From positions 1 through 43,825 of the forward strand of contig CALKCG010000039.1 in NCBI GenBank assembly GCA_938082915.1: a stretch of DNA of 43,825 nucleotides, in the 5' to 3' direction. How positions within the stretch are numbered: position 1 is the first letter of the stretch; each line of letters opens with the position of its first letter. The DNA comes from an uncultured archaeon. GTDB taxonomy: Archaea > Thermoproteota > CALKCG01 > B24. The notes below the pieces were generated by a model. The model had not been told where the DNA came from and searched no databases. It saw nothing but the letters and a program-made list of their open reading frames with translations. Both the position numbers and the translations under genes were made by a program. Positions 1,821-40,309 of the stretch are shown here, in pieces.

Positions 1821-1837
1821 TTCGCTCTAAAAACCCA

Positions 1838-1863
1838 TTTAAACATGTTTAGCTTTTATAAGC
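1838..1863 (-). promoter_or_regulatory. TATA-like element plus 10-bp palindrome upstream of the asparaginase-family gene
   Basis: GCTTTTATAAGC lies at 1852-1863, with its core about 35-40 nt upstream of the ATG at 1820. Perfect palindrome AAACATGTTT at 1841-1850 sits between this element and the start. Typical archaeal promoter geometry; not experimentally supported. Confidence 0.35.
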
Positions 1864-1869
1864 TTAACC

Positions 1870-15727: not shown

Positions 15728-16978
15728 TCATTTTCTTTTTCTGAAGTATGCGAGTCCATCGTGGGTGAAGACGTATTCAAAGCCTGCCTCCAACAGTTTT
15801 ACTATCTCTTCCTTCGTTTGTGCTACTTTAACGTGGAATTCGTCGCTCTGCTGCTGGTAAAGTGCTTTTTCAATGGTTACGTAGATCATGGTATTTTGAA
15901 TGTTCTTATGCCCAAGCACTTCCTTGACGTGTAATATGTCCTTTGTTTTATGGTACTCTATGGTCCCCTTCCAATGTCTGAATACGTGAAATGTTATATT
16001 CTTAAGCCTTGGATTGTTAAGCTTTACAGCTAGTCTATTCCTCTGATTGATGAAGGATTTCTTCCACGACCCCTTTTTAGCTGGAAAGATCTTCTCGTTC
16101 TCCCTTGGAAGAGAATTCAACATTTCAATGAGCTTCAAGCTTATTGGCAGTATTCTAGGCTTACTCCCCTTCTCAGGGGTTATTTTAACAAGCCTCCTCT
16201 CAAAGTCCACATCCGTCCATTTCAACTTTAAGGCCTCACCGAGCCTAGCGCCCGTCTCCTTGAGAAGCTGTAGAAGCGTTGAAGTTTTCCTCCCACATCC
16301 AGCTATCAATTGGTCAAGTTCTTCTTCCGTAGGTATGAATGGTATCTTCTCTTCGACCTTAAATTTAGGCATCTCCCAGCTCCCTTTAACGAATTTCAAG
16401 AAGGTGTCGTAGGCTTTAACATAAGCCATTTTTGAAGCGTTTGAAACCTTTAAACCGGCGATGAACCTTTTAACTTCTTCAGGATCGTAGACGTTGGAGT
16501 TTTCAACGACCTTCTTCAGAAAACAGCTGTAGTTTTTAACCGTTTCCTCGGTTTTCCCCTGACTTTTAAGCCATGCTGCAAATCTTGTGACGACGCCCCC
16601 CGCGGGCTTCTCCTTCAGGGGGACGGATTCCACCTCCAACACCTTGCCCATCTCAGACCTAGAGCCCGCCGAACCTAGGTCCTCATCTCCGTCTTTAAGA
16701 TAACTGTTGGATCTATTTAAGCTCTCGGTCTCGTGGGCTTTCCTATGCTTCGAGTGTGGGTCTGTGAATCTATATCCACAGTCTCGGCATAGGTATCGTT
16801 GGACTTTAGAGCCGTCGCTTAGCTCACGCCATCCATCTCTGAATAAGCGTTCAGAGCCGCACTCTGGGCAGCTCAGCCGGTCCCCTATGGGAGCTTTACG
16901 CTCATCCCGAGGACCGGTTGAGCCTTCGCGAACATCCATTGGGTCTCCTCTTGAGACATCTGAGCCCGTCCCGCTCAC
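15728..16978 (-). CDS. int: Tyrosine recombinase/integrase with N-terminal zinc ribbon (intact, pNOB8-type organisation rather than split SSV-type)
   Basis: CPECGS...CRDCG ribbon at the N-terminus. Catalytic-domain motifs TGARLGEAL (Arg), HVFRHWKGT (H-x-x-R) and LGHKNIQNTMIYV (His/Tyr). The stop lies 4 nt from the convergent GNAT stop. Confidence 0.9.
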   Translation of the reverse strand: MSGTGSDVSRGDPMDVREGSTGPRDERKAPIGDRLSCPECGSERLFRDGWRELSDGSKVQRYLCRDCGYRFTDPHSKHRKAHETESLNRSNSYLKDGDEDLGSAGSRSEMGKVLEVESVPLKEKPAGGVVTRFAAWLKSQGKTEETVKNYSCFLKKVVENSNVYDPEEVKRFIAGLKVSNASKMAYVKAYDTFLKFVKGSWEMPKFKVEEKIPFIPTEEELDQLIAGCGRKTSTLLQLLKETGARLGEALKLKWTDVDFERRLVKITPEKGSKPRILPISLKLIEMLNSLPRENEKIFPAKKGSWKKSFINQRNRLAVKLNNPRLKNITFHVFRHWKGTIEYHKTKDILHVKEVLGHKNIQNTMIYVTIEKALYQQQSDEFHVKVAQTKEEIVKLLEAGFEYVFTHDGLAYFRKRK

Positions 16979-18017: not shown

Positions 18018-18309
18018 TCACCATCAGCCCCCCGTACTTACGCTTTAACCCTCTGAGCACCTCGACCTCCCTCCTGATCCATTCAAGCCTAGGCTCTATA
18101 GATGAAATGGCCTCTAAGACTGGGTACTTCTTACACGCAGTCCGCGTAAGCTTGAAGCCACGACCGATGTGATATACCCTTAGGCATCTTGAGCAGAAGC
18201 GCTTGACCAGGGCATAGACAACTTTCTCGGCCTTAGGACGGTATTTCTTGAGCCTTCTATGGAATAGTCGACCTTCTATGCGGCGAATTTCCATGATTTC
18301 ACTATGCAT
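18010..18309 (-). CDS. hypothetical basic protein (99 aa)
   Basis: ATG start preceded by a G-rich SD-like GGGGAAGGGGG. 8-nt overlap with the Cas4-like gene. No recognised motif. Confidence 0.5.
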   Translation of the reverse strand: MHSEIMEIRRIEGRLFHRRLKKYRPKAEKVVYALVKRFCSRCLRVYHIGRGFKLTRTACKKYPVLEAISSIEPRLEWIRREVEVLRGLKRKYGGLMVNV

Positions 18310-23926: not shown

Positions 23927-24409
23927 TCACGTTTTTATGGCAGCAATTATCTCGCCTATGGCTTTGGACACTGCTTTCGCGCTATTGTGGGAGACCAACC
24001 TCTTCTCTTGTCGATCCCCGAGCTGCTCCGTCAAATCTAGTGCGAGTTCGACCATGCTCGTCAAGTAGCGCATAAGCGGCATCCCGCCGTGGAGCATTTT
24101 ATCGAGCACCTGTGCGTGAGTCAGGGGCTTCTGTTTTGCGTATACGGCCAGTAAGAACACGGTTAACGCTAGTCCAGCACTCCATGGGACTTTTACGAGG
24201 CTTCTACCGTTTTCCTTCTCAAGCGAATACTCGATTCTATTGATGTCTAGGGTTAAGAGTATATGCTTGTAGAGTTCGGACGCCCTCTTTCCTCCTAGCG
24301 TAATGTAGTATCGTGATTCTATGCTTGGAAATTTGACTCCCATCATGCACCTCTTAGGGTTCCTCGAGTGCTTGTATATCAGCCAGTATTCGCCCTCTGT
24401 CTTGACCAT
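23927..24409 (-). CDS. hypothetical protein (160 aa), last gene of the methyltransferase/ATPase operon
   Basis: ATG start 6 nt after the upstream stop. No motif recognised. Confidence 0.6.
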   Translation of the reverse strand: MVKTEGEYWLIYKHSRNPKRCMMGVKFPSIESRYYITLGGKRASELYKHILLTLDINRIEYSLEKENGRSLVKVPWSAGLALTVFLLAVYAKQKPLTHAQVLDKMLHGGMPLMRYLTSMVELALDLTEQLGDRQEKRLVSHNSAKAVSKAIGEIIAAIKT

Positions 24410-24415
24410 GAAGTC

Positions 24416-25243
24416 TCACCCCACTATCAGCATTGTTGAGAATGGGCTTAAACACGCTTTCTCCCCCGTGAACGCGTGGAGTAGGGAGCATCCATCTGGC
24501 TCTAGGGAGACGTCATATCCGTGGTCAGATAAAACTAGGACCGTGTAGTCTTCAGATAAGATGGCTATTTCAAACGCTATATCCTCAATAACTCTATGAA
24601 GGCTGACGGACATGTCGGACGTGCTCGGAAACTTTTCATACTGAGTTCTGTGGACCAGCTCATCAATGCCTCTCAGGACGGTATACCCCGCCGCCTTAAA
24701 CCTAGTTTTGAGAGCTTCTCCTACTGTGAACATAGTCATTTTTTCAAGTTGGGATTTGAGGATTATGGAAGTCAAATACTCGTATGTCTTAGTCGCACCA
24801 CCTGGATTTATCGAATACAGTAGCCCGTCTAAGTGAATAATTTTGGAGAACCTGTCGTAAAGGTATACGTATTCTGGAAGGGATAGGCAATCGCACAAGA
24901 CTACGTATGGTTTTTTCTTACGCGTCCTAAGGGCGGATTCGACTTTTTCAATAGCGTAGAGGATGCTCCCACCTGAAAGAATTAAGCCCTCCTTGGATAG
25001 TCTGTTCATAGAACCTATAAAGGCTTTACCTATTTCAACCGACTCCTCTAGTAGAGGATTGCGGGAAACTTGCTCGCAAAACTCTGGTCTACCGTAGGCT
25101 ACGCATAAACATGTAAAAAGCATATGCGCATATCTCTTTAACGATTCATCCCTCAGGGATAGTCTAATGGATTTGGAAAGCTTAAATGCATAGTCCCTAA
25201 GCAGGCTTAGGGAGGAGGACCACTCAACCCTCAACTCATCCAC
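24416..25243 (-). CDS. Miniature PglZ-like / alkaline-phosphatase-superfamily protein (275 aa)
   Basis: The ordered motifs YVVLCDCLSLPE (metal-ligand Asp region), NPGGATKTYEYL (nucleophile Ser/Thr region) and TVLVLSDHGYD (DHG motif) reproduce the PglZ/alkaline-phosphatase core layout. GTG start overlaps the ATPase stop by 8 nt. Confidence 0.55.
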   Translation of the reverse strand: MDELRVEWSSSLSLLRDYAFKLSKSIRLSLRDESLKRYAHMLFTCLCVAYGRPEFCEQVSRNPLLEESVEIGKAFIGSMNRLSKEGLILSGGSILYAIEKVESALRTRKKKPYVVLCDCLSLPEYVYLYDRFSKIIHLDGLLYSINPGGATKTYEYLTSIILKSQLEKMTMFTVGEALKTRFKAAGYTVLRGIDELVHRTQYEKFPSTSDMSVSLHRVIEDIAFEIAILSEDYTVLVLSDHGYDVSLEPDGCSLLHAFTGEKACLSPFSTMLIVG

Positions 25244-28200
25244 CAGACTTCTTCAGCTTGATCATGTTCTCATCTACCCCTATCCTTCTAAACTGTTCAA
25301 GTATTTTCTCCCTCTTCATCCTCTCCTCAAAGTACATAGTGAGAGAGACGTTCCTCAAGTCGCCCCCAAATTTCTCTAACATATTCTTGATGTTTAATAC
25401 TTCGACCACCCTTAAGGGTAGCTTCGACAAATCGACGCTTCCCCCTCTAATGTTTGCTGAGAAGTCTACGGCTTGGATACTGCTTAGATGGGGCTCTAAC
25501 TTACCTAAATGCATCACCGTTATGGTGACGTTATTAGTTCCATATACTTCAACTACGTTGTACTCCTCTGGAGGCGGGGGTGGAAGAGCTTTTACGCGCT
25601 CTACCACGATCTTTGCATCTTCTACAGATACTTTCACCTCATTTATCTCCGGGTCTGGTAGAGGATATATGCCACTTAGTATCTTCACAGCGCTCTCAAC
25701 AGCTGATTTAGATACTGGTTTTATCGGTATCTCAGGCCACCCCTTCACTATAGATTCAACCATGTACGTGGAGTCCATTTCAAGCCTCTTACCTGCTAGA
25801 AGGTCGTGTTTATGTTTCTCTGCGTATTTCTTCACGTACTCTATGAGGCTGGCTTTTATATCCGGGGTCTTCCGTATGTTGCATTTTCCACTTACGGCGT
25901 TTAAAATCCATGCCGGCAGCTCACCGTAAACCTCCTCAAACTTATTCGCAGACCTCTCAAGCGTCACTCTCAAATCCGCGTGTGTTATGGAGTCTATCAC
26001 AGGGTCGTAGTAGACGACTGTCTTGAAGAGGCTTATGAGATTCGCCGTATAGTTGCTTATGGCCGATGAAGTTAGGCCGGCTGCGTAGCTTTCGATCTTC
26101 TTGTGCATATGCTCCATTATCTCTAAAAGCACTTCCTCAAACTCCTGCTCGCTTTCATAGTACTCCTTGAGCGTAGGTATTGTTGGAGCCCTCTTTATCA
26201 TATTAATCCTCCTACGTCTGACCTGCTCTGGCTCGCCGACTTTTAAGTAATTTATGGCGGTGGAGGCCGCGTTGACTGATGCTATGTGATTGCAGATCCT
26301 AGAGAGGTCTTCGAGTGAGACGTCGGGGATCACCATGGCGAACATGTTTATGTACGGTATTTCGCTCCTATACTTCCGGATGATTGCTTCAGCTTCCTCA
26401 ACGTAATTTACCTTGGACTTTCCTAGTAGACTCGCCTCCAACACGCTCCAAGGAGATACCGTTAGTATCGTGAACGAGTCTCTGTCGAGGAGTTCTATAA
26501 ACTCAGGCTTACCTTTGAAACTGACCACGTGCTTCATCCAATCTATCAAGTAGAGCTTTGGAGGGGCTACTTTCCCAGACTTGCTTTGGAAGAAGCTCGT
26601 CAGTGGGTACTGATTGATCATATGGTCTTTAAAGTAGTTAAGCATGGCATTATAATCCCTCTTATCAACTCCAGCTTTCTCACGTTCTTCTTTGACCGTT
26701 TGCTCTATGAGCTCAGATGGATTTGGAAGAAGAGTGATTATGTAGTGTTCTAAACCGCCATATTCAAAGCTGTGTAAATATGGCAGCTTCTTAAACTCTT
26801 CGAAGGCTTCGTTAAACTTCTTGAGGCATTCCTCCGCCACAGCGCCTATGAGCGTTGTAGCAATGTCGAGTTTTGTAGCAGCTCTAAGCTTTACCTCAGC
26901 GCTCTCGATTTTAGACAGTACCTCGGGAGCTCTTATCATATCCAGCAGTTTAACTACGTTTTCAGTTATGGACTTAGCGTAAACCGTTGACGCCATGGCT
27001 AACATAAGCTCTCTAATGTCTTCGTCCTCAATCCTCTGAATAGTGCTCTCCCATAAATCGTAGATCCTCATCCACTCTCTTGCGATGCGTTCGCTCATAA
27101 CGTAACTGAAGTCTTCAGGTGCTAAACGGGTTATACTCATAAGCGTACACTCAGTCCACTTCGTGGACGTGAGCCTATTTATCAACGACGCCGTAATCTT
27201 CAGAAGGTCCCTTATATGCTGCGACCTCGGAAGGTCTGCCCCAAAAGTGGGATGTATAAACTTCTGTAGGAGGACTTCATAGCTTGGAGAAAACGGGTAG
27301 AATTTATCAAGCCTCCCCGTGAAATTGAGGACTTCATCTTTACCGATTAAACCCGCAAACTCTTCCTCTATATGTTTTTTAAGAGTTTGCACAGCATCCT
27401 GTTTTCTGGCTTTGAACCTTAATAGCCTCAGGGCTAGTATGTTTAGGGCGTCTTCAACCCCTAGTGGCTTTAAAGTTGATGGTTTAAGTCTCCCAACTCT
27501 ATCGTTCAACTCCCCAATGGCATCTACTAAGAGTGGTATGGTCTTATCGACTTCAGAATGAATGAGGTACTTTGATACCCTAGACCATCTTTCTACGTCC
27601 TGCTGAGCGGATGCATATATGAAGACCAGCGGTACTACTCCTCTAGAGTATTCTAAAAGCTCCTTGAGAAAAGATATGAGGTCCATTAGGCTTTTGATTC
27701 TTTCAATGGAGCCCCCATCGATTGTACTACGAACTCCTCCATAGAGTTCATCTACTACGACTAGTATTGGCGTAGGCTCTCTAAGACTTGAAATAAGGGT
27801 ATTAACGGCTTCTATAGGTCTGAGCTTACTAAGGCCCCTAAGGAAGCTCGGGTCTAAGACTTTAATTCCATGAACCTTAGACTTGTGCTCCAGTATTCTA
27901 GCTGCCACCTCGAATATCGCGTCGTAGGGCTTGAACTCCTTAGGGCATCTTAACATGTCTATCGCGAAGATCAACGTTCTCTCAGCCACTCTCCTATCGT
28001 AGTCGTATTTCCAGAGGGCGTTGGGGTCCAATACTTCTCTAATGTCATCAAAGTCCCAGCGGTATGTTTGAGCATAGAGGTGCCACAATAGTGTGAGGAA
28101 GTGGGTCTTTCCAAAACCCATCTCCTGGGTTAGAGACAGAGCGACTGGAGCTTCTCGAACGACTTTAAGCCCTCCGTTGACCATTTTTAAAGCATCAGCC

Positions 28201-28418
28201 ATCGGGTCGAAGTACGTTATCGATAGAAACGTAACGGTATCTAGGAATTCGTCGCTCACTACGACGCGCGGGTCAAACAGCTCGTGTTCAATTATCATGC
28301 CGAGGCTTGGCGCGAGTCTACCCACGTACTCACCTGGACTGAGCTTGCTATAGGCTTCCACAAGCTGAGTTGGTTCGACCACATCTTTCAACCTAGGAAT
28401 GTACATGTACAACTTCAC
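25236..28418 (-). CDS. Very large P-loop ATPase, DUF499 / BrxC-PglY-class (COG1483-like)
   Basis: 1060 aa. Walker A EMGFGKTHFLTLL near residue 100, Walker B ILVVVDELYGG. GTGA overlap with the methyltransferase stop. Family call rests on size, motif placement and the characteristic pairing with a DUF1156 methylase. Confidence 0.75.
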   Translation of the reverse strand: MKLYMYIPRLKDVVEPTQLVEAYSKLSPGEYVGRLAPSLGMIIEHELFDPRVVVSDEFLDTVTFLSITYFDPMADALKMVNGGLKVVREAPVALSLTQEMGFGKTHFLTLLWHLYAQTYRWDFDDIREVLDPNALWKYDYDRRVAERTLIFAIDMLRCPKEFKPYDAIFEVAARILEHKSKVHGIKVLDPSFLRGLSKLRPIEAVNTLISSLREPTPILVVVDELYGGVRSTIDGGSIERIKSLMDLISFLKELLEYSRGVVPLVFIYASAQQDVERWSRVSKYLIHSEVDKTIPLLVDAIGELNDRVGRLKPSTLKPLGVEDALNILALRLLRFKARKQDAVQTLKKHIEEEFAGLIGKDEVLNFTGRLDKFYPFSPSYEVLLQKFIHPTFGADLPRSQHIRDLLKITASLINRLTSTKWTECTLMSITRLAPEDFSYVMSERIAREWMRIYDLWESTIQRIEDEDIRELMLAMASTVYAKSITENVVKLLDMIRAPEVLSKIESAEVKLRAATKLDIATTLIGAVAEECLKKFNEAFEEFKKLPYLHSFEYGGLEHYIITLLPNPSELIEQTVKEEREKAGVDKRDYNAMLNYFKDHMINQYPLTSFFQSKSGKVAPPKLYLIDWMKHVVSFKGKPEFIELLDRDSFTILTVSPWSVLEASLLGKSKVNYVEEAEAIIRKYRSEIPYINMFAMVIPDVSLEDLSRICNHIASVNAASTAINYLKVGEPEQVRRRRINMIKRAPTIPTLKEYYESEQEFEEVLLEIMEHMHKKIESYAAGLTSSAISNYTANLISLFKTVVYYDPVIDSITHADLRVTLERSANKFEEVYGELPAWILNAVSGKCNIRKTPDIKASLIEYVKKYAEKHKHDLLAGKRLEMDSTYMVESIVKGWPEIPIKPVSKSAVESAVKILSGIYPLPDPEINEVKVSVEDAKIVVERVKALPPPPPEEYNVVEVYGTNNVTITVMHLGKLEPHLSSIQAVDFSANIRGGSVDLSKLPLRVVEVLNIKNMLEKFGGDLRNVSLTMYFEERMKREKILEQFRRIGVDENMIKLKKSGG

Positions 28419-31400
28419 CTCTCATACAGGAGTTTAAGCACGTTTTCTATAAAGGGTTTATTTAGCCTTGTAATGCCGAACGACTTCAACTCATCCTCTC
28501 TAGCGGTTAGCAGTAGGAATAGTGCAACAGCCACAACCTGTCTACTATATGGAAATAGCGTCCTTACTCGTTCCGCGGCTCTACTGACCTCTTCGACTGC
28601 TGGAATATCCGCTAAAATTTTCGTGAGCCTTAAAGCCATGCCTGAGGCGGTTTTATCCAGGACTTCGACTCTACGCTTGATGAGTTCCAGAGCCTCTCTA
28701 CCGTAAATTACTTTACGTGAGGAGCCGCCTTTAGCCTCTAGTAGCCCAAGGTTTTTAAGTCTGTCGAGGCTCGTACCGATGACCTTACAGATTTTTTCGC
28801 CGAAGTCATATTCAACGGTCGATTCCTCTGAGAACCTTGTGGACATCCATAGGAGTAAGTAGGCCTTCGAGTCGTTATCCACTAAGAGTATGTCGTTGAC
28901 CATGTTTTCAGCCAAAGCCTCTTCAACGCCGGCCTTCTTAAAGGCCTCTTTAAGAGCGCCCTCCAGAATCCTCGAAACACCATGGTATAAAGCCACCGGG
29001 TATAGGCTTTCCCTGAAGAACTGCAGTAACATAATAAACCTATATACGTCTCCAGCGCCCAAACCCTCCGCTTCGGTAAACTCATCTATAGGTCTAACAC
29101 CACGCTTAACAGATACTGCCTCAATCGACGGGTTCCATATTCTCGTGGCACCTGCTATCGCACCGGCTAAAGCCATTATGTACTTTTCGTATTCTGAAGC
29201 TCCAGATTCTATGGCGCTCTGAAGAGCATCCACCGTGCTTGACACGATAGCCCGTTTAACGTCTTCATTTATCGATAGGTCCCTAACGTCTCTAGTGCCG
29301 ACGACTACTCTCTCGCCCGCCTTTCTAGTCACGATCGCCAAACTTGAGAAGAACGCTGACCCTGCTAACGCAACACGTCTCTCAGCCATCTCCGTCCTTA
29401 TGGTCCAAACCTTCGTGACCATGAAGCCTGAAGCGTATAGAGCGCTTAGAATGCCCTCCCAAGCCTCTGGGTCGCTGTGAGTAAACCACACTATGAGGGC
29501 GCCGTCGTCTTTGAGGCTTTTATGGGCTTCTCGGAAGAACATCCACATGTTTTTCACGTACCAATCTCTACTATGCGTCGTCTTCATGCGTTCTAAAATC
29601 TCCAGAGCACTCCTCCCTTTGGCAGAGACTTTAACGGTCTTTCTCTCTATGATTTCACCATCCCTAGGCACGGTCGATAGTATGGGACTCCAACCCGAGA
29701 CGAAAAGCTCAGCTCTACTAGGCTCACCTCTATTGAACAAATAGCCTGCGTCTATAGCAGGAGACAAAGTGACTCTTAAGACCTGCCAGAAGAACTCGCT
29801 TATATCGCTGTAGGTGTGCTGGTCGAAATACGGAGGGTCTACATTAATAACATCGACGCTCTTCTCGCCCAATATCTTAGAAAGATCCACAGCGTCGGCC
29901 ATCAGAACCTTAACCCTATCGCCTAAGCCTCCGACCCAAGAGCACAAGTGCTTGAGCACGGGGCATATACCACCATGGGTCTTAGTAGGCTCTTCGACGT
30001 CAGGCTCAAAAACCCAGCCCAGTGATTTGTGAGGGTCTTCAACTATGGGAGGCATTTCACAGTATTCGAGACCAAGACCTATCTTTCTTGTTCTTGCATA
30101 GTGGTCCATAAGTTCTCTTATGGTTCTGGTAGTATCGTCCCATGTAGTTGTAATGTTATTAAAATTCATCAGTTTATCAATGCCAAAAGCTAAATAGAAA
30201 ATACCAGCTAATCTGAACTCCGCTTTTTCATCAATTGATTCTTTAATCCTTGCTCTGACGTATTTTACCAGCTTCATCAAAATTAAAAGCTGCCTCGGAT
30301 TGAATAGCTCATACCAGTAATCTATCCCCAGGTCTGTCACAGGCTTGAATACTTCGTTCTCGGCTTTGTATATTGGGTCTGATGGTATGTAGTCTTTGAG
30401 CTCTTCGCTCAGCCTAGTTAGGTCTAGGTATGCCTCGGTAAACCTCTCCACGTCTTCCTTCGCTGCTGCCTTAAACCCCCTCTTAGTCTGCTTGACGAGT
30501 AGGATGTGTGTCCGATTGAGCTCTTCAACAGATTCTTTGGCTGATTTGAAGTCCCCGCTCAAAGCGGTCTTCAAGAGCCTCTTATGCCTTGAAACCCAGT
30601 CTCGAAGGGCAACTTCCTCTACTACTGGAGCCTTGCAGTACGGGCACCTAAGCCTGGTAAACTCTGCCTCCACTTCGGAGATATCCACCGCGAAGCTCTT
30701 CTTCTCCCCATCGAAGCTGAACTTTATATACGGTCCATTCTTCCCAAGTCTCGTAGTATGTATTATCGGAATCAAGCCTCCGCAGGATTTACACATATAC
30801 CCTCTGGCGATTATATAGTTCATAGCATCCTCAGGATAGTACTTCCCAAGTTCCTTCCTAGCCCAACCTATGAGCCTCTCAGCCTCAGCCTTAACCTCCT
30901 CGTAAAGCCTCACACCATATTTGGCAGGGTACTCAAGCGTGGCCTTGAGGATCAAGTAGGCGACGGGGTTGTACTCCATAGCAACCGTCCTAAAGCCAAG
31001 CCTCAAAGCCTCCAAAGGAATAGAGCCACCACCAGCCATAGGGTCTACGATGAGTATTTCACTAGAATTCTTGCCTATTTTTTCCTTCAAGACGTCATCT
31101 AGATGCCTTCTTTTAGGATTTGAATTAAGGAGTATTGGCAGAATTTTTTGTGTGGCTAAGTCAGATATATCATTAAAACCAACAATTTCTCTAAAGAGGT
31201 CTTTACTGAAATTATGGGGAAGAATAGCAGCTAGATTGAGTATTCTTGAAAGTGCCATCGGGCGCCTCGCAAACCAAGGATGGAGATTATTTGGCTGCGG
31301 GGTTCCTACGTTAAGCACCGTTGGATCTACACTATACAGACTTAAAAATTGAGGCCTGTACTTGTTCCTCGAAATTCTGAATGAAATCTCAATGGCTGCG

Positions 31401-31456
31401 TGGAGATTCATTTCTGATAGAGGAAGCCATTCTTCAACAAGCCTTCTAAAAGACAT
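28415..31456 (-). CDS. DUF1156-type Zn-ribbon-containing DNA methyltransferase (COG1743-like; N6-adenine/N4-cytosine class)
   Basis: 1013 aa. DUF1156 signature NLHPWFARRPMALSRIL, SAM motif I IVDPMAGGGSIPLEALRLG, ribbon CKSCGG...CPYCKAPV, catalytic motif IV VINVDPPYFD. GGAGG lies 8 nt upstream of the ATG. Confidence 0.9.
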   Translation of the reverse strand: MSFRRLVEEWLPLSEMNLHAAIEISFRISRNKYRPQFLSLYSVDPTVLNVGTPQPNNLHPWFARRPMALSRILNLAAILPHNFSKDLFREIVGFNDISDLATQKILPILLNSNPKRRHLDDVLKEKIGKNSSEILIVDPMAGGGSIPLEALRLGFRTVAMEYNPVAYLILKATLEYPAKYGVRLYEEVKAEAERLIGWARKELGKYYPEDAMNYIIARGYMCKSCGGLIPIIHTTRLGKNGPYIKFSFDGEKKSFAVDISEVEAEFTRLRCPYCKAPVVEEVALRDWVSRHKRLLKTALSGDFKSAKESVEELNRTHILLVKQTKRGFKAAAKEDVERFTEAYLDLTRLSEELKDYIPSDPIYKAENEVFKPVTDLGIDYWYELFNPRQLLILMKLVKYVRARIKESIDEKAEFRLAGIFYLAFGIDKLMNFNNITTTWDDTTRTIRELMDHYARTRKIGLGLEYCEMPPIVEDPHKSLGWVFEPDVEEPTKTHGGICPVLKHLCSWVGGLGDRVKVLMADAVDLSKILGEKSVDVINVDPPYFDQHTYSDISEFFWQVLRVTLSPAIDAGYLFNRGEPSRAELFVSGWSPILSTVPRDGEIIERKTVKVSAKGRSALEILERMKTTHSRDWYVKNMWMFFREAHKSLKDDGALIVWFTHSDPEAWEGILSALYASGFMVTKVWTIRTEMAERRVALAGSAFFSSLAIVTRKAGERVVVGTRDVRDLSINEDVKRAIVSSTVDALQSAIESGASEYEKYIMALAGAIAGATRIWNPSIEAVSVKRGVRPIDEFTEAEGLGAGDVYRFIMLLQFFRESLYPVALYHGVSRILEGALKEAFKKAGVEEALAENMVNDILLVDNDSKAYLLLWMSTRFSEESTVEYDFGEKICKVIGTSLDRLKNLGLLEAKGGSSRKVIYGREALELIKRRVEVLDKTASGMALRLTKILADIPAVEEVSRAAERVRTLFPYSRQVVAVALFLLLTAREDELKSFGITRLNKPFIENVLKLLYER

Positions 31457-31515: not shown

Positions 31516-32262
31516 TTAACCATGAGCTTCACCTTCCATGCACTTTGGACATATATGCATTATCGGGCATATGTCGCACTCCGGCTTCTCCCTGCAGTAG
31601 TAGAAGCCTATGTGCCACAGTCCAGCGTCCAGTGCCATAGGTGGCACCTTAAACTTCATCCTGACGACCTTATCGGCTTCCTCTAGTGTTGCATCCTTTG
31701 GTATGATGTGCGTCCTTTCTAAAACTCTCATGACTGGGTCTGCTGGCGATAGGTTTACGTTCTTAATATCGAGCTTAATTATATCGGCTAATCTGAGTTC
31801 TCTGACTATCCCCGGTGCCAAGACCGGTCCTATGCCGGGTAGCTTACTGAGGTCGTTTTCTAGAATCTTAGCATCCGTGAATTTGGCGAAATATTTGACT
31901 AGGCTTCCTCCATTATTTACGGCTATACTCACCAACTCTCTGAAGAACCTTAAAAGCCCTGCAAACCCTCCATGGGGATTAAACCTTGGTATAGTCCTAG
32001 CCACGCCTACTACGGCTTCTTCCACTCTACTGATCCCGTGTTTTTGATTTATTTCAAGTAGACGCTCAAGGGAGATCATCCTCGCAAACTCGTCTAAAGC
32101 GTGCTCGGGGGTTCCAGTAGGCCATTGATAGGTTCTCCAACAGATTTGGAATGCTGCCTCTTCTGAGCCTAACCTGTCTACCATGTCTAAGAGCTCCATC
32201 CTATACTCATCAGTCTTCATCAAGCAGAACCTTGTGAGCTCGTCTATTAAGGCCTGGCTCAT
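31516..32262 (-). CDS. Endonuclease-III-like helix-hairpin-helix protein with C-terminal Fe-S cluster loop (putative DNA glycosylase/lyase-like)
   Basis: HhH motif LSKLPGIGPVLAPGIV, followed by SPADPVMRVLERTHII (position of the EndoIII VDTH-x-x-RV segment). C-terminal C-x5-C-x2-C-x5-C (CREKPECDICPIMHIC) compares with EndoIII C-x6-C-x2-C-x5-C. ATGA overlap with the upstream wHTH gene. Confidence 0.65.
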   Translation of the reverse strand: MSQALIDELTRFCLMKTDEYRMELLDMVDRLGSEEAAFQICWRTYQWPTGTPEHALDEFARMISLERLLEINQKHGISRVEEAVVGVARTIPRFNPHGGFAGLLRFFRELVSIAVNNGGSLVKYFAKFTDAKILENDLSKLPGIGPVLAPGIVRELRLADIIKLDIKNVNLSPADPVMRVLERTHIIPKDATLEEADKVVRMKFKVPPMALDAGLWHIGFYYCREKPECDICPIMHICPKCMEGEAHG

Positions 32263-32453
32263 ACCTCCTCCCTCCAGAACAAGTGTATTTTACTAGAGCC
32301 CTTGTACCGTACGCCCTTCTTCGTCATGGCTAGGTGCATCAACGCATCCTTAGCGGTCTTGTAGTTTATCCCAAGCCTCTTGGCGACCTCGTTCGGCGTG
32401 GCTGGTTCATCCGTAAGCACGTTGTAAACGGCTTCTTCGTACTTACTTGGCAC
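32259..32453 (-). CDS. Small winged-helix DNA-binding protein (64 aa), first gene of the operon
   Basis: TPNEVAKRLGINYKTAKDALMHLAMTKKGVRYKG is an HTH plus wing. GTG start. Confidence 0.6.
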   Translation of the reverse strand: MPSKYEEAVYNVLTDEPATPNEVAKRLGINYKTAKDALMHLAMTKKGVRYKGSSKIHLFWREEV

Positions 32454-32469
32454 GATAAATCACTATTTA

Positions 32470-32479
32470 ATTGTACAAT
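32470..32479. promoter_or_regulatory. Perfect 10-bp palindrome overlapping the predicted promoter of the defence operon (candidate operator)
   Basis: ATTGTACAAT lies 17-26 nt upstream of the GTG at 32453. It directly abuts a TATA-like TTATAT (minus-strand reading) about 24-30 nt upstream of the start. Confidence 0.4.
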
Positions 32480-32743
32480 ATAAGATTATGGTTTACTTTC
32501 GATGCACCAACGGAATACTCATAGAGAGCCCAAATCCAGTCTTACGGATGTGGTGGTCTTTGCCTACCACCTCTACCATTACTCAATATTTTTCATGGGC
32601 TACAGCTCATGGACTGCATGGCGATGTTTGACGCTTTAAGTCAAGTCAGGCTTGCCTTATGGGATTCTACCATAAATTTACCCAAAACCGCGCACGTTTG
32701 AATCATGGGAAATCGCAGTCCTACGTGCATACTACTTTGTAGC

Positions 32744-33045: not shown

Positions 33046-33375
33046 TTAAAATAGTTCTCCATACTTGCTCACGTGGTCTTCTACTGCCTTCTCCTGGTTG
33101 TCTATAGAGCCGTCCCATTCGTCTAACTCCTTTTCCATCTTTGACCAATGTGCATAAATGTCTTCAGCTACTTCCTCCCCTTCGATCTTTAGTACCGCAT
33201 CACCTTTCCCTTCTTTCCGCGCTTGTCGGATGTTATGAAGGGGTCTATATATACGTACTCTAACCCCATGCTCTTCCAAGGTAGTCTGTCTAGGAACCCT
33301 CCAGTTCTCAAGAGTGGTTTGACCCCTTAATCTATTAAAACTGGACACGTTTTCACCTCCCAATAATATGGCCAC
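33046..33375 (-). CDS. hypothetical protein (109 aa)
   Basis: ORF only. Its 5' end overlaps the start of the divergent 33368 ORF, so one of the two starts is wrong or this ORF is spurious. Confidence 0.3.
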   Translation of the reverse strand: MAILLGGENVSSFNRLRGQTTLENWRVPRQTTLEEHGVRVRIYRPLHNIRQARKEGKGDAVLKIEGEEVAEDIYAHWSKMEKELDEWDGSIDNQEKAVEDHVSKYGELF

Positions 33376-34009
33376 AGACAGAGAAATCGTTAAAAGAGGA
33401 AAAACTTATCTCATTTGTCTCACTTATCTTAATAACGTGATGTTGGAAAGTGAAAGTAGAGCTTTTAGGGAGTGTATTAAGATGGCTAAGATGCTTTATG
33501 AATTGGATGGTTTATACGATGACCTCCTTAAATCTGCGTCAAATGAGCCCGCTGAGTTCGAAAGAAAGCTTTTGGACTTTATATCGCTCGTAAATAGGGT
33601 TAAGAAGAAGATCGAGTTGTTCAGTATGGTTTATAGCGTAGGTCCAATCATTGACATCGCATCTGATCCCAGCGATGAGAGGAATGCATTAGTTAAGGTC
33701 GGCTTGAAAATGAGGCGTTATAAATATGAAAGTAAACCGATTAAAGTCCGCCAATTCATAGTCGCAGAAATCTTGCCATTAACTGAGGCGCACTTGAAAT
33801 CAGAAGATGTTATAAAGGCGGCCGTCAGTAGAGCTTCTAAACGTGAGCTTATATCACCAGGTGAAGCAGCTAGATCGCTCAATGTCTCATATAAAACTCT
33901 CTGGAGGTGGTGGAAGGAGGGGAAGATCAAAGCCGTTAGATTGCCTTCAGGGCGATTAAGATATTACAGGCATGAGGTTGAAAAATTGATGAAAAACGCC
34001 GTCGGCTGA
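33368..34009 (+). CDS. Protein with C-terminal excisionase/MerR-type HTH domain
   Basis: C-terminus ISPGEAARSLNVSYKTLWRWWKEGKIKAVRLPSGRLRYYRHEVEKL is an excisionase-family HTH. N-terminal ~160 aa unknown. Internal ATGs (for example residue 25) are alternative starts. Confidence 0.6.
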   Translation: MATDREIVKRGKTYLICLTYLNNVMLESESRAFRECIKMAKMLYELDGLYDDLLKSASNEPAEFERKLLDFISLVNRVKKKIELFSMVYSVGPIIDIASDPSDERNALVKVGLKMRRYKYESKPIKVRQFIVAEILPLTEAHLKSEDVIKAAVSRASKRELISPGEAARSLNVSYKTLWRWWKEGKIKAVRLPSGRLRYYRHEVEKLMKNAVG

Positions 34010-34224: not shown

Positions 34225-36546
34225 TCACGTACCCAATTTTAACATCCACCTCTCCACTCCATTTCTCTTTTCAACCTCCACTCCTCTGCTCCGCCTTTTT
34301 AATAGCTCTTTAAGCTCTTGCTTGAAAAGTTCGTCGGGCATGAAAATCCTGATAGCTCTTTCATACATTACCATCGATTTATCGCCATGCTTTTTCCACT
34401 TTTTCACTGGAGAGGATGACGTACATTTGAGACCCCTTTTCTCCGCCAGTTTACGTATTTCGCTACTGAGCTCATCAAGCCTTTTATAACACTTGCGCCG
34501 CTTGGCACCGGTACTGATGACTACTATTTGAAGCTCTGGTGGCTTCAAAGTAGTAGGAGTGGAACGTTGGCGGATTAATCGCCATTCTTTTAAGGGTTCT
34601 TCCACCTCCAGTCCTTCTTTATACGCGAAGACTCCTCCTCTTTCTTTAACGTAGGATAGAAACTCGGACAGTAGACCCTCAGAGCATCGATTAATAGAAT
34701 TGGAATTTCCCACAACTATGAGCTTGCATCTAGCCCTCGTAAAGGCGACGTTGAGCCTGTTAGGGTCTTCGACAAAGGATAGGCTTGAAGTGGCGGTGAC
34801 ACTAAATATTATGACATCCTTCTCCCTACCTTGGAAGGCATCTACAGTATTTACTTCTATTTCGTCGTCCTCTAAAGATTCCCTTAACTTACGCATCTGA
34901 GACTTAAATGGTGTAATAACACCTATCTGAGCACTATGAATACCGAGACTTTTCAATGCAAAGACCACTCTCTCGATGGCCTCAACTTCTAGTGGATTAT
35001 ACTTGGACCTCCCCTCGACTACTTCAGACCCCTCCACCTCTAGGAACACGACAGGCCTCTCGGGGTTTAGAAATTCTAAATCGGCTGGAGGCCGTCTTTT
35101 CAAACTGAGCTTTATGCCTCTGCACGCCTCAACGGGAGTTATCTTCCCTTCGTAGATGTACCTTTGTGAGAACCCTATGATATCGCTGTTACTCCTATAG
35201 TGCCATCTGAGCCACAGAGCTCTATTTCCATAGGTATCCAGCATATGGCAAAAAGCGCTCAGCTCTTTCTGAACATCTTCTTTTTCGGTCTTAAAAATCG
35301 GTAGTAATTGCTTATGATCTCCTATGAGGACCCACTTGTTAGCCTTAATCATTCCAAGCAGGGCTAATATTATGGATGCTTGACTGCACTCATCTATTAA
35401 AGCTACGTCAAACCTCTCATTCGCCAGAGGATATAGCTGAGACTTTATTAGCGTAGACCCGATGATATTAGCGGCTTTTACAAGCCTCTCGCTTTCAGCT
35501 CTAAGCATTCTGTTCCTTTCTTCAAATAGCATCCTAAGCTCTTGCCTCAGACTAACGCCCTTATCCCTGATGCTAGAATACTTATCTTTAAACCCAACTT
35601 CATACCATTCTCTCCTGAGCTCGTAGAGCCCTTTAATGTTCCTCCTCAATGCATCTATTTTGTTCTCCAATTCTTCAAGTTTAGCTCCAAGTGCCGTCCT
35701 CCTAGCCTTATAGCTTAAAAGATAGGGTCTTACGTTTTTCAGAACTTTCTCAGGTCTACCGACCCTAAGGGACTCTTCAACTGGTAAGATTTCGATGGCG
35801 TTGTCCACTGCCCTATTCGTGTGAGAGGCTATCAGAACCCTTTCACCCCTTTTAGAGAGCTCGTAGGCAGCCTTGGCTATGACCCTGGTCTTGCCAGTAC
35901 CGGGAGGCCCTATGATCAAAAGGAGTTCACTGTCATTTAGACCTAAAATATGTTCAATCGCGTCTACTTGAGAGCTGTCAAGTTGAAACTTTCCGCTCAA
36001 GTCCATTCTATCGTTGAGAGTTACTCTGCGAGGTAGGGGCATATCTACGGCATTTAGCATTACTTGAACAGCCTTCATCTCCACCTGGTCGAGCTCTCCA
36101 GTCACTATCCTGTCTATAAGCTCTAGCTGTAAGTCGTAACCAACGAGGACTTCAGCTTCGCATAGCTCTATAGACTCACCCTCCTTCAAGTCCGTAGGTT
36201 TAAACAGCCCTATGGTGGATACGGTACCACTAGCTATGACGGTTCCGAGGGGCTCTATTCCTTTTAATGGGCTTAGGCGACCTACAACGTCGCCTTCTTC
36301 AAACCTAGGAAAGCTGCATTCGATTGTAACAGCTTCATCTTCTACATCGAGGACCTCGCCTTTAACACGTTCCGTAATTGCCCTCTTCTTTTCCTCGTTT
36401 CTCTCATTTAAGAGAAGTCTTTTCATGAATTTTAAAAGCTCATTTAAGTCATCGAACAGAGTGCTCTTACCGCACTTCCAACACTTGATGGAGTCAGGTG
36501 TGATTCTCATTCCACATCTGGGGCAAAACTTCAACGATCCCTTCAC
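34225..36546 (-). CDS. Superfamily-1 helicase of the Upf1/Dna2-like (AAA_11/AAA_12) type with N-terminal zinc ribbon
   Basis: 773 aa. CPRCG...CWKCG ribbon, Walker A IIGPPGTGKTR, Walker B DVALIDECSQ, LIGDHKQLLP (motif III), long coiled-coil insertion, VNTVDAFQGREKDVIIFS and NVAFTRAR (motifs V/VI). Confidence 0.9.
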   Translation of the reverse strand: MKGSLKFCPRCGMRITPDSIKCWKCGKSTLFDDLNELLKFMKRLLLNERNEEKKRAITERVKGEVLDVEDEAVTIECSFPRFEEGDVVGRLSPLKGIEPLGTVIASGTVSTIGLFKPTDLKEGESIELCEAEVLVGYDLQLELIDRIVTGELDQVEMKAVQVMLNAVDMPLPRRVTLNDRMDLSGKFQLDSSQVDAIEHILGLNDSELLLIIGPPGTGKTRVIAKAAYELSKRGERVLIASHTNRAVDNAIEILPVEESLRVGRPEKVLKNVRPYLLSYKARRTALGAKLEELENKIDALRRNIKGLYELRREWYEVGFKDKYSSIRDKGVSLRQELRMLFEERNRMLRAESERLVKAANIIGSTLIKSQLYPLANERFDVALIDECSQASIILALLGMIKANKWVLIGDHKQLLPIFKTEKEDVQKELSAFCHMLDTYGNRALWLRWHYRSNSDIIGFSQRYIYEGKITPVEACRGIKLSLKRRPPADLEFLNPERPVVFLEVEGSEVVEGRSKYNPLEVEAIERVVFALKSLGIHSAQIGVITPFKSQMRKLRESLEDDEIEVNTVDAFQGREKDVIIFSVTATSSLSFVEDPNRLNVAFTRARCKLIVVGNSNSINRCSEGLLSEFLSYVKERGGVFAYKEGLEVEEPLKEWRLIRQRSTPTTLKPPELQIVVISTGAKRRKCYKRLDELSSEIRKLAEKRGLKCTSSSPVKKWKKHGDKSMVMYERAIRIFMPDELFKQELKELLKRRSRGVEVEKRNGVERWMLKLGT

Positions 36547-38975: not shown

Positions 38976-39161
38976 TTGATGTCAGAAGTCTCAGAGAAGC
39001 TATTGACAACGGGTGAAGTAGCCAGAAGGCTTCAAGTCAGCATAAAAACGGTTCAGAGGTGGGTTAAAGAGGGGAGGCTCAGAGCGATAAAGTATCCAAG
39101 TGGTCGTTTCAAAGTCCCCGAGAGCGAGGTTGAGAAAATATGGGAGTCGTTAAGGCAGTAG
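38976..39161 (+). CDS. Excisionase/MerR-type HTH protein (61 aa), resembling the N-terminal DNA-binding domain of IS607-type TnpA without a recombinase domain
   Basis: LLTTGEVARRLQVSIKTVQRWVKEGRLRAIKYPSGRFKVPESEVEKI. Its end overlaps the tnpB start by 22 nt. Confidence 0.7.
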   Translation: MMSEVSEKLLTTGEVARRLQVSIKTVQRWVKEGRLRAIKYPSGRFKVPESEVEKIWESLRQ

Positions 39162-40309
39162 TTTTCAAGCATAATGCTGACGTCAAACCACTACTTGAGA
39201 TGTTCAACGGAATGGTCAATGAATGCATGGAATATGCTTTGAGGCAGGGCGTCAACTCGCCGATGAAACTCGAGAGGGCATTGTATACTGAATTTAAACA
39301 GAAGCATGGGCTAGCCACTCACTACTGTATATCAGCTTGTAGAGTGGCTTGCTCAGCTTTAAAGTCTTGGAGGAGGCTTGTGAAGAAGGGAAGGGCTGAC
39401 GAAAGTAAGCCTCCAGAGTTTAAAGCGTTTGTGATGAGGCTTCAGAAGGAACTCATGAGGTTTAAAGGCGATAGGATAGTTGTAACGGTGAAACCACGTC
39501 AATGGGTTGAAATCCCTCTGATAATCGGCTCGTATCAGGCTCGATTCTTTGAGGCTTGGAGAAAGGGGGAGCTTAAACTGGGTGAAATAACGCTTTTAGA
39601 GGATAAAGCAATAGCGACTTTCAAGAAAGAGGTTCAAGAGGTTGCTCCTAAAGGCTATGCTTCAATAGACGTCAACTTGATGAGCCTAGACATTTTGAAG
39701 ACTGATGGCAAATCCCTAAGGTGTGAGAAAATAGATTTGAAGAAGCTCTACGGAATAAGAGTCCACTACTTCAAGAAGCGCAGGAGAATTCAGAAGCTGA
39801 GCAAGTGCAAGCCTAAAACATCTAAGCGGCTCATGGAAAAATACTCTAAACGTGAAAAGAGGAGGATAGACGACATCCTTCATAAGATTACGGCAAATAT
39901 TGTTAGAGAACTTGTTAAGGAAGGTATTTCACCAGTCTTTGAAAAGCTTAAAGGATTGAATTACAACGCTACGAGGAATCGCCATGCGAAGCGTAAGAAT
40001 CGCAAAGTTTCATCGTTGCCATATTGGAAGATTCAAAGATTCATAGAGTATAAGATGGCCTGGCACGGCTATAAAACTCATTATGTTAATGCAAAAAACA
40101 CAAGCAAGACTTGCCCGAGATGCGGGAGTCTATCCCAAGCTGGAGGGCGTGTCTACAAATGTAATAAGTGCGGCTACCTAGCGGATAGACACTTCGTCGC
40201 ATGCGTGAACATACTCAAGATGTGGGGACTCGGGTTCACCCCGAAAGCCCTCAATGAGTTCATCGAGAGGGAAGAGTTACGTATGTCTATAAATGACTAC
40301 GTAACTTGA
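39140..40309 (+). CDS. tnpB: TnpB-like RNA-guided endonuclease (IS200/IS605-IS607 OrfB family)
   Basis: 389 aa. RuvC-I ASIDVNLMS, RuvC-II PVFEKLKGL, zinc finger CPRCGS...CNKCG, RuvC-III LADRHFVACVNIL. The catalytic D/E/D residues appear intact. Confidence 0.9.
   Translation: MGVVKAVVFKHNADVKPLLEMFNGMVNECMEYALRQGVNSPMKLERALYTEFKQKHGLATHYCISACRVACSALKSWRRLVKKGRADESKPPEFKAFVMRLQKELMRFKGDRIVVTVKPRQWVEIPLIIGSYQARFFEAWRKGELKLGEITLLEDKAIATFKKEVQEVAPKGYASIDVNLMSLDILKTDGKSLRCEKIDLKKLYGIRVHYFKKRRRIQKLSKCKPKTSKRLMEKYSKREKRRIDDILHKITANIVRELVKEGISPVFEKLKGLNYNATRNRHAKRKNRKVSSLPYWKIQRFIEYKMAWHGYKTHYVNAKNTSKTCPRCGSLSQAGGRVYKCNKCGYLADRHFVACVNILKMWGLGFTPKALNEFIEREELRMSINDYVT

Follow-up and report, generated by a model that had tools for sequence, protein, structure and literature searches.

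The window described here, 43,825 nucleotides of contig CALKCG010000039.1 of an uncultured archaeon, carries a gene encoding a 248-residue iron-sulfur (Fe-S) protein with a helix-hairpin-helix (HhH) motif. The protein belongs to a divergent, standalone Fe-S HhH-GPD family that has been recruited to archaeal defense islands, where it lies in a conserved cassette. The cassette consists of a winged helix-turn-helix (wHTH) gene, the HhH gene and, at some loci, a zinc-ribbon gene. It heads the cargo slot of integrative elements, and DNA-modification-based defense cargo is exchanged behind it. The features of the window that are central to this finding are as follows.

31516..32262, reverse strand: HhH-GPD-fold Fe-S protein, 248 residues, ATG start; a divergent family without a Pfam model
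31816..31842, reverse strand: HhH hairpin LPGIGPVLA, residues 141-149, in which L141, P142, G143 and G145 are invariant
31702..31749, reverse strand: SPADPVMRVLERTHII, residues 172-187; the helix that bears the catalytic Asp in endonuclease III (EndoIII) and MutY
31549..31596, reverse strand: Fe-S loop C223-x5-C229-x2-C232-x5-C238, from the translation and the family alignment
32259..32453, reverse strand: winged-helix protein (TrmB/PF0610-like), 64 residues, with weak TrmB and PF0610-like_N matches; first gene of the operon, GTG start

The 248-residue open reading frame (ORF) is a genuine gene, since its closest homologues are 60-68% identical and the AlphaFold2 (AF2) model built on a 13-sequence family alignment is confident, with a predicted local distance difference test (pLDDT) score of 91.3 and a predicted template modeling (pTM) score of 0.87. 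No model in Pfam, NCBIfam or PADLOC is matched at threshold, and weak matches to MutY and EndoIII are confined to the C-terminal ~110 residues (135-246, E about 0.002-0.01). The best structural matches found by Foldseek in the PDB are MutY, MUTYH and EndoIII, over the full length of the protein, with a probability of 1.0 and a query-normalized TM-score of 0.5-0.6; the matches to MutY, MUTYH, EndoIII, ROS1, MIG and OGG1 cover about 240-265 alignment columns. The confident model and these full-length matches make the assignment of an HhH-GPD fold with an Fe-S loop a solid prediction, and a cluster of the [4Fe-4S] type is predicted from the pattern of cysteines. LPGIGPVLA pairs with LPGVGRKTA of Bst EndoIII in a HMMER alignment. 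Within the 13-sequence family alignment all four cysteines of the Fe-S loop are invariant, the first spacing being x6 in P0007 and P0010, and R154, R183, R201, D212, K240 and the glycines of the hairpin are also invariant. An earlier interpretation made from the letters of the DNA (the sequence-only reading) had called this an EndoIII-like Fe-S HhH protein, and the AF2 model and the Foldseek matches to MutY and EndoIII bear that out. The motifs it had picked out (LPGIGPVLA, the terminal C-x5-C-x2-C-x5-C, the ATGA overlap with the wHTH gene and the distance of 59 nucleotides to a methylase gene) are all present in the sequence.

The catalytic apparatus, judged from the alignments, is not canonical, with the Asp displaced and the Lys missing. 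In three alignments (by HMMER against Bst EndoIII, and by MAFFT against remote relatives in which D-x-H-V is retained) the canonical catalytic Asp column falls on Ala174, and the helix in the AF2 model begins at residue 175, which places the canonical Asp position on Ala174 as well. One residue past this column lies D175, an acidic position throughout the 13 family members (11 Asp, 2 Glu); in the next clade outward (P0017, P0018, P0019 and P0020) the residue at this position is K, K, E and L, respectively. The equivalent of the EndoIII catalytic Lys (E. coli K120) is Val147 in the alignment to Bst EndoIII. For the catalytic Glu of MutY (Bst E43) we see no acidic residue 4-5 positions ahead of the conserved Q46, a weak observation judged by eye. 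The C-terminal NUDIX-like domain with which MutY recognizes 8-oxoguanine is absent, as the protein stops 10 residues past the Fe-S loop, and with the NCBIfam mutY model, for which the cutoff is 286.5, the protein scores 17.6. Thus the Asp-containing segment that the sequence-only reading had placed at the EndoIII catalytic block, SPADPVMRVLERTHII, is indeed there, but its acidic residue stands one position beyond the canonical column. Structure prediction, by which that reading had proposed to confirm the fold and locate the catalytic Asp and Lys, returned the fold, and the alignments put alanine and valine at the two catalytic positions.

The likeness to EndoIII and MutY therefore lies in the two-domain all-helical fold, the HhH hairpin and the C-terminal four-cysteine Fe-S loop. 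The protein differs from them in being 14-20% identical, in an insertion of 6-10 residues after the HhH and ahead of the Asp helix, in the Ala at the Asp position and the Val replacing Lys120, in the first cysteine spacing (x5 instead of x6), in having no MutY C-terminal domain, and in lying within defense islands and mobile elements instead of a housekeeping setting. A missing Asp is not proof of inactivity, since Sis-HhH-GPD of Saccharolobus islandicus has Ser152 in place of the canonical Asp and is yet an active glycosylase (PMC11754123). Sis-HhH-GPD resembles the present protein as a crenarchaeal Fe-S HhH-GPD protein lacking the canonical Asp, but it is the product of a chromosomal repair gene close to MagIII, MpgII and MjUDG, and its catalytic Glu, which belongs to the HhH motif, takes the place of the EndoIII Lys; the residue there in the present protein is Val147. 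Set against the EndoIII-like domain of the END nucleases, which is an inactive sensor, this precedent means that sequence alone cannot settle the question of activity.

The family loci were dereplicated to 14 and their neighboring ORFs clustered. All 14 of these core-family loci lie in the context of a defense island or mobile element, and the protein does not group with housekeeping Nth or MutY, in agreement with the sequence-only reading. A wHTH homologue lies directly upstream of the HhH gene in eight loci (the window, L001, L020, L021, L023, L026, L027 and L028), those outside the window being 50-65% identical to it. Translational coupling of the wHTH and HhH genes is kept in at least five loci, and the gene junctions of the cassette overlap or abut. 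In seven loci (L001, L020, L021, L026, L027, L028 and L029) the gene immediately after the HhH gene encodes a zinc-ribbon protein of 60-80 residues, of which there are two types.

What follows the cassette is variable. The adjacency to DUF1156/DUF499 genes that the sequence-only reading had raised holds in the general sense that a DNA methyltransferase (MTase) gene lies within two genes of the HhH gene in 9 of the 14 loci, but a DUF1156 MTase with an HmaC-like ATPase stands behind the HhH gene in the window and L001 only. The cargo of L026 and L029 is an N6_Mtase/Eco57I protein of 932 or 1008 residues, and that of L020 and L027 a type IIG enzyme (1059 and 1238 residues), which carries its own nuclease. 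In L011 the downstream gene encodes a type II MTase of 488 residues, and L023 and L014 have a PAPS reductase (BrxP/SspD/DndC-like) together with an SMC-like ATPase. Between L001 and L023 the HhH proteins share 98% identity, and the L026 protein is 89% identical to either one; the genes downstream of the three are unrelated. A phylogeny of the HhH proteins was considered as a possible tracer of cargo type and rejected, since the tree does not follow the cargo.

Comparison of L001 with L026, L028 and L029 by blastn shows the anatomy of the slot. The left flank, comprising the wHTH, HhH and zinc-ribbon genes, is conserved at 91-97% nucleotide identity, as is a right flank of ~220 base pairs adjoining the attachment (att) site, and the cargo between them differs. 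In L028 the slot is empty, with the right flank following straight after the zinc-ribbon gene, which is frameshifted; the HhH gene of this locus (2141-2822) has lost codons 37-193. L027 has an HhH remnant (1208-1704) in which the last 45 codons are joined to the wHTH gene, and there the wHTH, zinc-ribbon and type IIG genes are intact. Thus the cargo is swapped or absent behind a constant cassette and the HhH gene is deleted in L027 and L028, which excludes a partnership of effector and methylase matched in specificity and shows the HhH gene to be dispensable for the cargo. The conserved wHTH-HhH-zinc-ribbon flank together with the att-adjacent right flank, at 17754-18045 in L001, offers a handle by which unknown archaeal defense cargo could be harvested from metagenomes.

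L001 is a 17-kb element between perfect direct repeats of 53 nucleotides (946-998 and 17972-18024) that resemble the 3' end of a tRNA. It contains an SSV-type integrase at the other end, a ParB-like gene, the wHTH-HhH-zinc-ribbon cassette and a DUF1156 MTase split into parts of 583 and 172 residues. The gene clusters shared by this element and that of the window are those of the wHTH, the HhH protein and the MTase only, from which we conclude that the wHTH-HhH pair moves with defense cargo and not with one backbone.

Intact HhH genes also occur without the wHTH gene, in L002, L005/6, L008 and L011. Their neighbors are a PLD nuclease in L002, an MTase and a small GIY-YIG nuclease in L005, and a small GIY-YIG nuclease in L006. 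In L008 the solitary HhH gene lies beside a divergent HTH-MTase-DpnII operon, with the same GIY-YIG gene ~2.3 kb away. PLD nucleases are found next to or near the family gene in both L002 and L011, and L005 and L008 each have a DUF6884 gene of its own in the neighborhood. The small GIY-YIG_3 nuclease and a DUF6884/YaaA-like protein recur beside the solitary genes (L005, 10830-11861; L008, 6543-7574).

In the window the operon runs in the order wHTH, HhH, MTase (1013 residues), P-loop ATPase (1060 residues) and proteins of 275 and 160 residues, with overlapping or near-abutting junctions. The four cargo genes, and a further pair of genes that lies 2 kb upstream of the operon, are the following.

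28415..31456, reverse strand: DUF1156/HmaB-type N6-adenine DNA methyltransferase, 1013 residues, from profile matches; first cargo gene
25236..28418, reverse strand: P-loop ATPase, DUF499/HmaC-like, 1060 residues, with Walker A GFGKTH; overlaps the MTase gene by 4 nucleotides
24416..25243, reverse strand: standalone PglZ-like protein of predicted alkaline-phosphatase fold, 275 residues, from AF2 and Foldseek
23927..24409, reverse strand: fourth conserved cargo protein, 160 residues, 56-74% identical to the proteins encoded after the PglZ-like gene in L045-L050
36543-37142, reverse strand: DCD/EVE-like protein, 199 residues, from profile matches
34225-36546, reverse strand: zinc-ribbon and superfamily 1 (SF1) helicase protein (MkoA-like), 773 residues, from profile matches; translationally coupled to the DCD gene

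The 1060-residue ATPase has no direct profile match; it is 27% identical over 260 residues to the 920-residue protein of L001, which is itself a PADLOC match to HmaC. The 275-residue protein has no Pfam match either, but in Foldseek its AF2 model (pLDDT 87) finds the PorX PglZ domain and BREX PglZ with probabilities of up to 1.0, and D118, T151/T153, D194, H198 and D240-H241 are invariant. On the strength of this model it is a candidate for the cargo system's own effector, so that the premise of the sequence-only reading that the operon contains no obvious nuclease does not hold.

By way of homologues of the 275-residue protein, the MTase-ATPase-275-160 unit was found in six more loci (L045-L050), in Korarchaeia (Methanodesulfokora), Bathyarchaeia and other TACK archaea, with MTase identities of 53-67%. 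It comprises there an ATPase of ~1050 residues without a profile match and a PglZ-fold protein of 271-275 residues, both of which escape Pfam and PADLOC. Searches of L045-L050 by tblastn with the HhH protein and the wHTH protein found neither, and inspection of the ORFs lying upstream in L048 and L049 gave the same outcome; the contigs of L045 and L046 carry just the end of the MTase gene, and those of L047-L050 include sequence that spans the MTase gene or lies upstream of it. A 251-residue ORF upstream of the MTase in L048 was considered as a diverged HhH counterpart and rejected, as it encodes an FSGAxF pentapeptide-repeat-like protein (1200-1955, forward strand). In this Methanodesulfokora-type locus the pentapeptide-like protein occupies the position held by the HhH gene in the window.

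By its gene content in these loci, the MTase-ATPase-PglZ-like-p160 system is self-contained and the HhH gene is not part of it. Since other loci have the four-gene unit and no HhH gene, the HhH protein is an accessory and not the cognate restriction partner of the MTase. Consistent co-occurrence with the MTase-ATPase unit fails in both directions, as the HhH gene is absent in L047-L050 and present with other cargo in L011, L020, L023, L026 and L029. The sequence-only reading had made the HhH protein a candidate effector or sensor that tells methylated self DNA from unmethylated invader DNA for the DUF1156/DUF499 operon. That proposal is not sustained, since the unit recurs without the HhH gene and near-identical HhH genes precede unrelated cargo or none. 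The reading of the operon is thereby corrected to that of a self-contained DUF1156/DUF499-type unit with a PglZ-like candidate effector.

This unit resembles the Type-3 BR systems described in 2026, which have a DUF499-centered layout and for which a standalone PglZ is proposed as effector (PMC12839542). Like these and Hma, the window cargo has a DUF1156 MTase, a large P-loop ATPase, a PglZ-like protein, a small fourth protein, and a nearby helicase and DCD/EVE-like gene, with the qualifications that PglZ is matched at the level of the fold only, that the link of the ATPase is transitive only and that the helicase is matched as SF1/MkoA-like and not as BrxHII. The 160-residue protein is possibly the 'iSTAND' of Type-3 BR systems, and the DCD gene and SF1 helicase may be the helicase arm of the same DUF1156/DUF499-type system. 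A homologue of the DCD protein (60% identity) lies near the four-gene unit in L047/L048, there without a helicase. The HhH and wHTH genes are by contrast an addition confined to the window and L001, and the text of PMC12839542 contains no occurrence of a glycosylase or HhH component.

At the start of the operon the wHTH and HhH genes overlap by 4 nucleotides (32259-32262, TCAT on the forward strand and ATGA on the coding strand). The translational coupling seen in the sequence-only reading is thus to the wHTH gene, and not to the methyltransferase as its title had it. Between the end of the HhH gene and the start of the MTase gene (31456) is a gap of 59 nucleotides, with GGAGG 8 nucleotides ahead of the ATG and no oligo-T run, which makes it likely that these two genes are co-transcribed. 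Upstream of the wHTH gene we read a putative promoter.

32477-32484 (region 32470..32484), reverse strand: putative archaeal promoter with TATA-like CTTATATT, read from the sequence and centered ~27 nucleotides upstream of the wHTH GTG

A perfect palindrome of 10 base pairs, ATTGTACAAT (32470-32479), overlaps the TATA-like box and is a putative operator; this arrangement suggests a leaderless, autoregulated operon. When the sequence upstream of the wHTH gene was compared across loci it was not conserved between cassette subtypes, and no common operator could be derived.

The family is a small one. It makes up 15 clusters among 5.8 billion proteins, all of them unnamed or labeled 'hypothetical' save one JGI 'endonuclease III'. 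When 1.8 billion representatives were searched exhaustively with the family profile, 7 proteins came out below 1e-30 and 280 below 1e-3. We take the hosts to be hot-spring archaea; the samples are mostly metagenomes, for which the environment is presumed. The species genomes of GTDB that were scanned contained remote relatives alone, with 25-45% identity over part of the protein, and no relative was found when the family profile was compared with 2.9 million viral contigs. A search of BFVD gave as its best structural match the EndoIII of an archaeal tailed virus, and the helical domains of thymidine-hypermodification enzymes were matched weakly, at the level of the fold. Contigs of the extended clade (P0017, P0018 and P0020) are too short for their context to be informative; P0018 adjoins MazG and BacA. 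Of 44 wider relatives from the exhaustive search that were scanned, 17 passed the Pfam HhH-GPD model. The remote relatives (hmmsearch E 1e-6 to 1e-12) include HhH-GPD domains fused to MrcB_N and AAA_5 (McrB-type), to DUF4357 or to DUF6884. The DUF6884 fusion is seen in P0126, a remote HhH/Fe-S relative of 539 residues.

Such fusions recall the END nucleases, in which an EndoIII-like sensor is fused to PLD, PD-(D/E)xK or McrB modules and hypermodified phage DNA is targeted (PMC12191111, bioRxiv 2025). Compared by description, both the END iEndoIII and the present protein are modules of EndoIII/Ogg fold that act in anti-virus defense, or lie in its setting, without canonical catalytic residues. 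The McrB-type GTPase partner of the remote relatives and the PLD nucleases beside the L002 and L011 genes add to the likeness. The present protein differs in being standalone (the fusions occur in remote relatives only), archaeal, accompanied by wHTH and zinc-ribbon genes and upstream of MTase cargo, and in keeping a full Fe-S loop, of which the END paper makes no mention (PMC12191111).

The function that we think most likely for the HhH protein, and which we put forward tentatively, is an accessory one directed at modified or damaged bases, either as a base-flipping reader or as a non-canonical glycosylase. We are led to a reader by the McrB- and DUF6884-fused relatives, the END sensors, and the GIY-YIG and PLD neighbors. 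The protein would bind DNA with both its HhH hairpin and its Fe-S loop, and would flip out and read non-canonical (modified or damaged) bases. It might then act as a monofunctional glycosylase using the shifted acidic D175, or as a catalytically weak sensor. The element would in this way gain a modification-dependent arm, comparable to a type IV system, complementing whichever methylation-based cargo lies downstream, with which the protein would be co-expressed from the wHTH-controlled promoter. If this is its role, the protein would be an archaeal standalone Fe-S counterpart of the EndoIII-like sensor that is fused to nucleases in the bacterial END systems, and the immune use of the glycosylase fold would extend to hot-spring archaea.

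Several observations weigh against such a reader. The internal deletions in L027 and L028 indicate a dispensable function, and the HhH gene of the window has no nuclease partner. The fused remote relatives are 18-23% identical to the family and retain the canonical Asp. Residue 175 is acidic in 13 of 13 members of the MTase-linked clade, which could mean ordinary repair catalysis, and the operonic linkage to MTases (in the 9 loci given above) is predicted equally by a regulatory or a repair role. A broader version of the proposal, which we consider doubtful, is that the wHTH-HhH/Fe-S-zinc-ribbon cassette is a portable front end whose HhH/Fe-S protein reads base modification or damage and gates the expression or action of the slotted cargo, be it an MTase, a type IIG enzyme or a PAPS reductase. 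Were it correct, it would constitute a new system-independent sensor layer for defense of the restriction-modification (R-M) type.

Other explanations are possible. The protein could be the cognate effector or sensor of the DUF1156 MTase, excising or scanning unmethylated invader DNA while N6-methylation shields self, with the logic of R.PabI on a MutY-like fold. R.PabI and Brig1 restrict invader DNA by base excision, each with a defined specificity matched to its system; their folds are unrelated to that of the present protein, whose gene is found with one unrelated cargo after another. Adenine glycosylases (MutY) are indeed its best matches in sequence and in structure, and the operon is shared with an N6-adenine MTase, an MTase being adjacent in 9 of 14 loci. 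Nevertheless, HhH genes that are 89-98% identical stand beside unrelated MTase classes, non-MTase cargo or none, which makes a matched sequence specificity untenable. The MTase-ATPase-PglZ-like-p160 unit moreover occurs without the HhH gene, type IIG cargo has its own nuclease, the window already contains a PglZ-like candidate effector, the HhH gene is deleted in L027 though the type IIG gene is intact, and the canonical Asp position is Ala. We regard this explanation as very improbable. Somewhat better placed, though still unlikely, is a companion repair glycosylase that clears the deamination or off-target alkylation lesions of methylation (1-methyladenine, 3-methylcytosine) at high temperature and so lowers the cost of the MTase cargo. 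It has a precedent in Sis-HhH-GPD, an Fe-S HhH glycosylase without the canonical Asp that excises 1-methyladenine via another Glu (PMC11754123). In accord with it, MTases of three unrelated architectures repeatedly share an operon with the gene; the presumed hot-spring hosts and the acidic residue conserved at 175 also fit. A second model for such a function, beside that of Vsr, is Mig.Mth, a T/G mismatch glycosylase encoded beside an R-M system on the Methanothermobacter plasmid pFV1, which Horst and Fritz in 1996 are said to have shown counteracting the deamination of 5-methylcytosine. Mig.Mth likewise comes from a thermophilic archaeon, has the Fe-S cluster and HhH motif and is carried on a mobile element, and its structure (1kea) is a weak Foldseek match at rank 37. 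Mig.Mth, however, has the canonical Asp and serves a 5-methylcytosine methylase, whereas the present gene faces MTases of N6-A or N4/N6 types, and also non-MTase cargo. Methylation of these types presents a small deamination hazard. The HhH gene also precedes the PAPS-reductase/SMC cargo and an empty slot, close relatives of the window MTase system lack it, and the protein has no detectable kinship to the MagIII/MpgII/Sis clade past the fold.

The constancy of the cassette while the cargo changes is equally what would be expected of a regulatory module, in which the wHTH, HhH/Fe-S and zinc-ribbon proteins control transcription of the cargo in the manner of a C-protein or BrxR-like leader, with the HhH protein a non-enzymatic sensor of DNA damage, redox state or foreign DNA. 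The placement of the cassette first in the operon, where a TATA-like box and palindrome precede the wHTH gene, the retention of wHTH-HhH coupling in at least five loci, and the missing canonical catalytic residues would all suit this. Yet the HhH gene occurs without the wHTH gene in five locus types (L002, L005/6, L008, L011), upstream sequences differ between cassette subtypes, and the L027 cargo is intact despite the deleted HhH gene; moreover, we know of no precedent for an HhH-GPD protein as a transcriptional co-regulator. We rate a regulatory module no higher than the repair glycosylase. A constant left flank with cargo swapped or missing could alternatively mark a backbone gene serving the maintenance or entry of the element's own DNA, unrelated to defense, with MTase adjacency reflecting only the neighboring cargo slot. 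The integrase, ParB-like gene and att repeats in the same element and the best BFVD match to the EndoIII of an archaeal tailed virus are consistent with that. It is nonetheless distinctly unlikely, given that the window and L001 elements have only the wHTH, HhH and MTase clusters in common, that solitary copies also lie beside R-M or nuclease genes, and that the 2.9 million viral contigs gave no match. The least probable of the explanations, to which we give hardly any credence, is an addiction pair of the toxin-antitoxin (TA) kind, with the wHTH protein as antitoxin and repressor and a DNA-damaging toxin of glycosylase fold stabilizing the element. The layout is that of a type II TA system, with a small DNA-binding gene first and a 4-nucleotide ATGA overlap, the L027 and L028 remnants keep the wHTH gene and lose the large gene, and these islands often contain TA genes, such as VapBC in L049. 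Against this, an intact solitary HhH gene without the wHTH gene, as in the same five locus types, would be lethal for a true toxin, and to our knowledge no HhH-GPD toxin exists in any known TA family.

The island that carries the window operon can be delimited on its left side. The host belongs to the Bathyarchaeia, the flanking housekeeping genes being 83-89% identical to those of Bathyarchaeia metagenome-assembled genomes (MAGs). Synteny with four related Bathyarchaeia MAGs ends at ~15,695, where the GC content goes up from 0.41 to 0.49, and an integrase gene lies beside the break. The HhH gene therefore lies in an integrated island. No direct repeats of at least 30 nucleotides bounding the island were found in the window, and the right edge was not located within the 10-kb flanks of the related MAGs. 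Further features, at the left end of the island and to the right of the defense genes, are as follows.

15728..16978, reverse strand: tyrosine integrase with an N-terminal zinc ribbon, at the left edge of the island beside the synteny break
17337-18017, reverse strand: Cas4-like PD-(D/E)xK nuclease, at the left end of the island
18433-20514, reverse strand: 693-residue protein without matches, at the left end of the island
39140-40309, forward strand: TnpB/Cas12f-like gene (OrfB_IS605 and TNB domain), to the right of the defense genes

Divergent from the wHTH-HhH operon is a gene for a 213-residue protein (33368-34009, forward strand) that has a C-terminal MerR/excisionase-type HTH_17 domain and a PADLOC match to mad1. 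A related integrase occupies the site corresponding to the left edge in one of the MAGs (L057).

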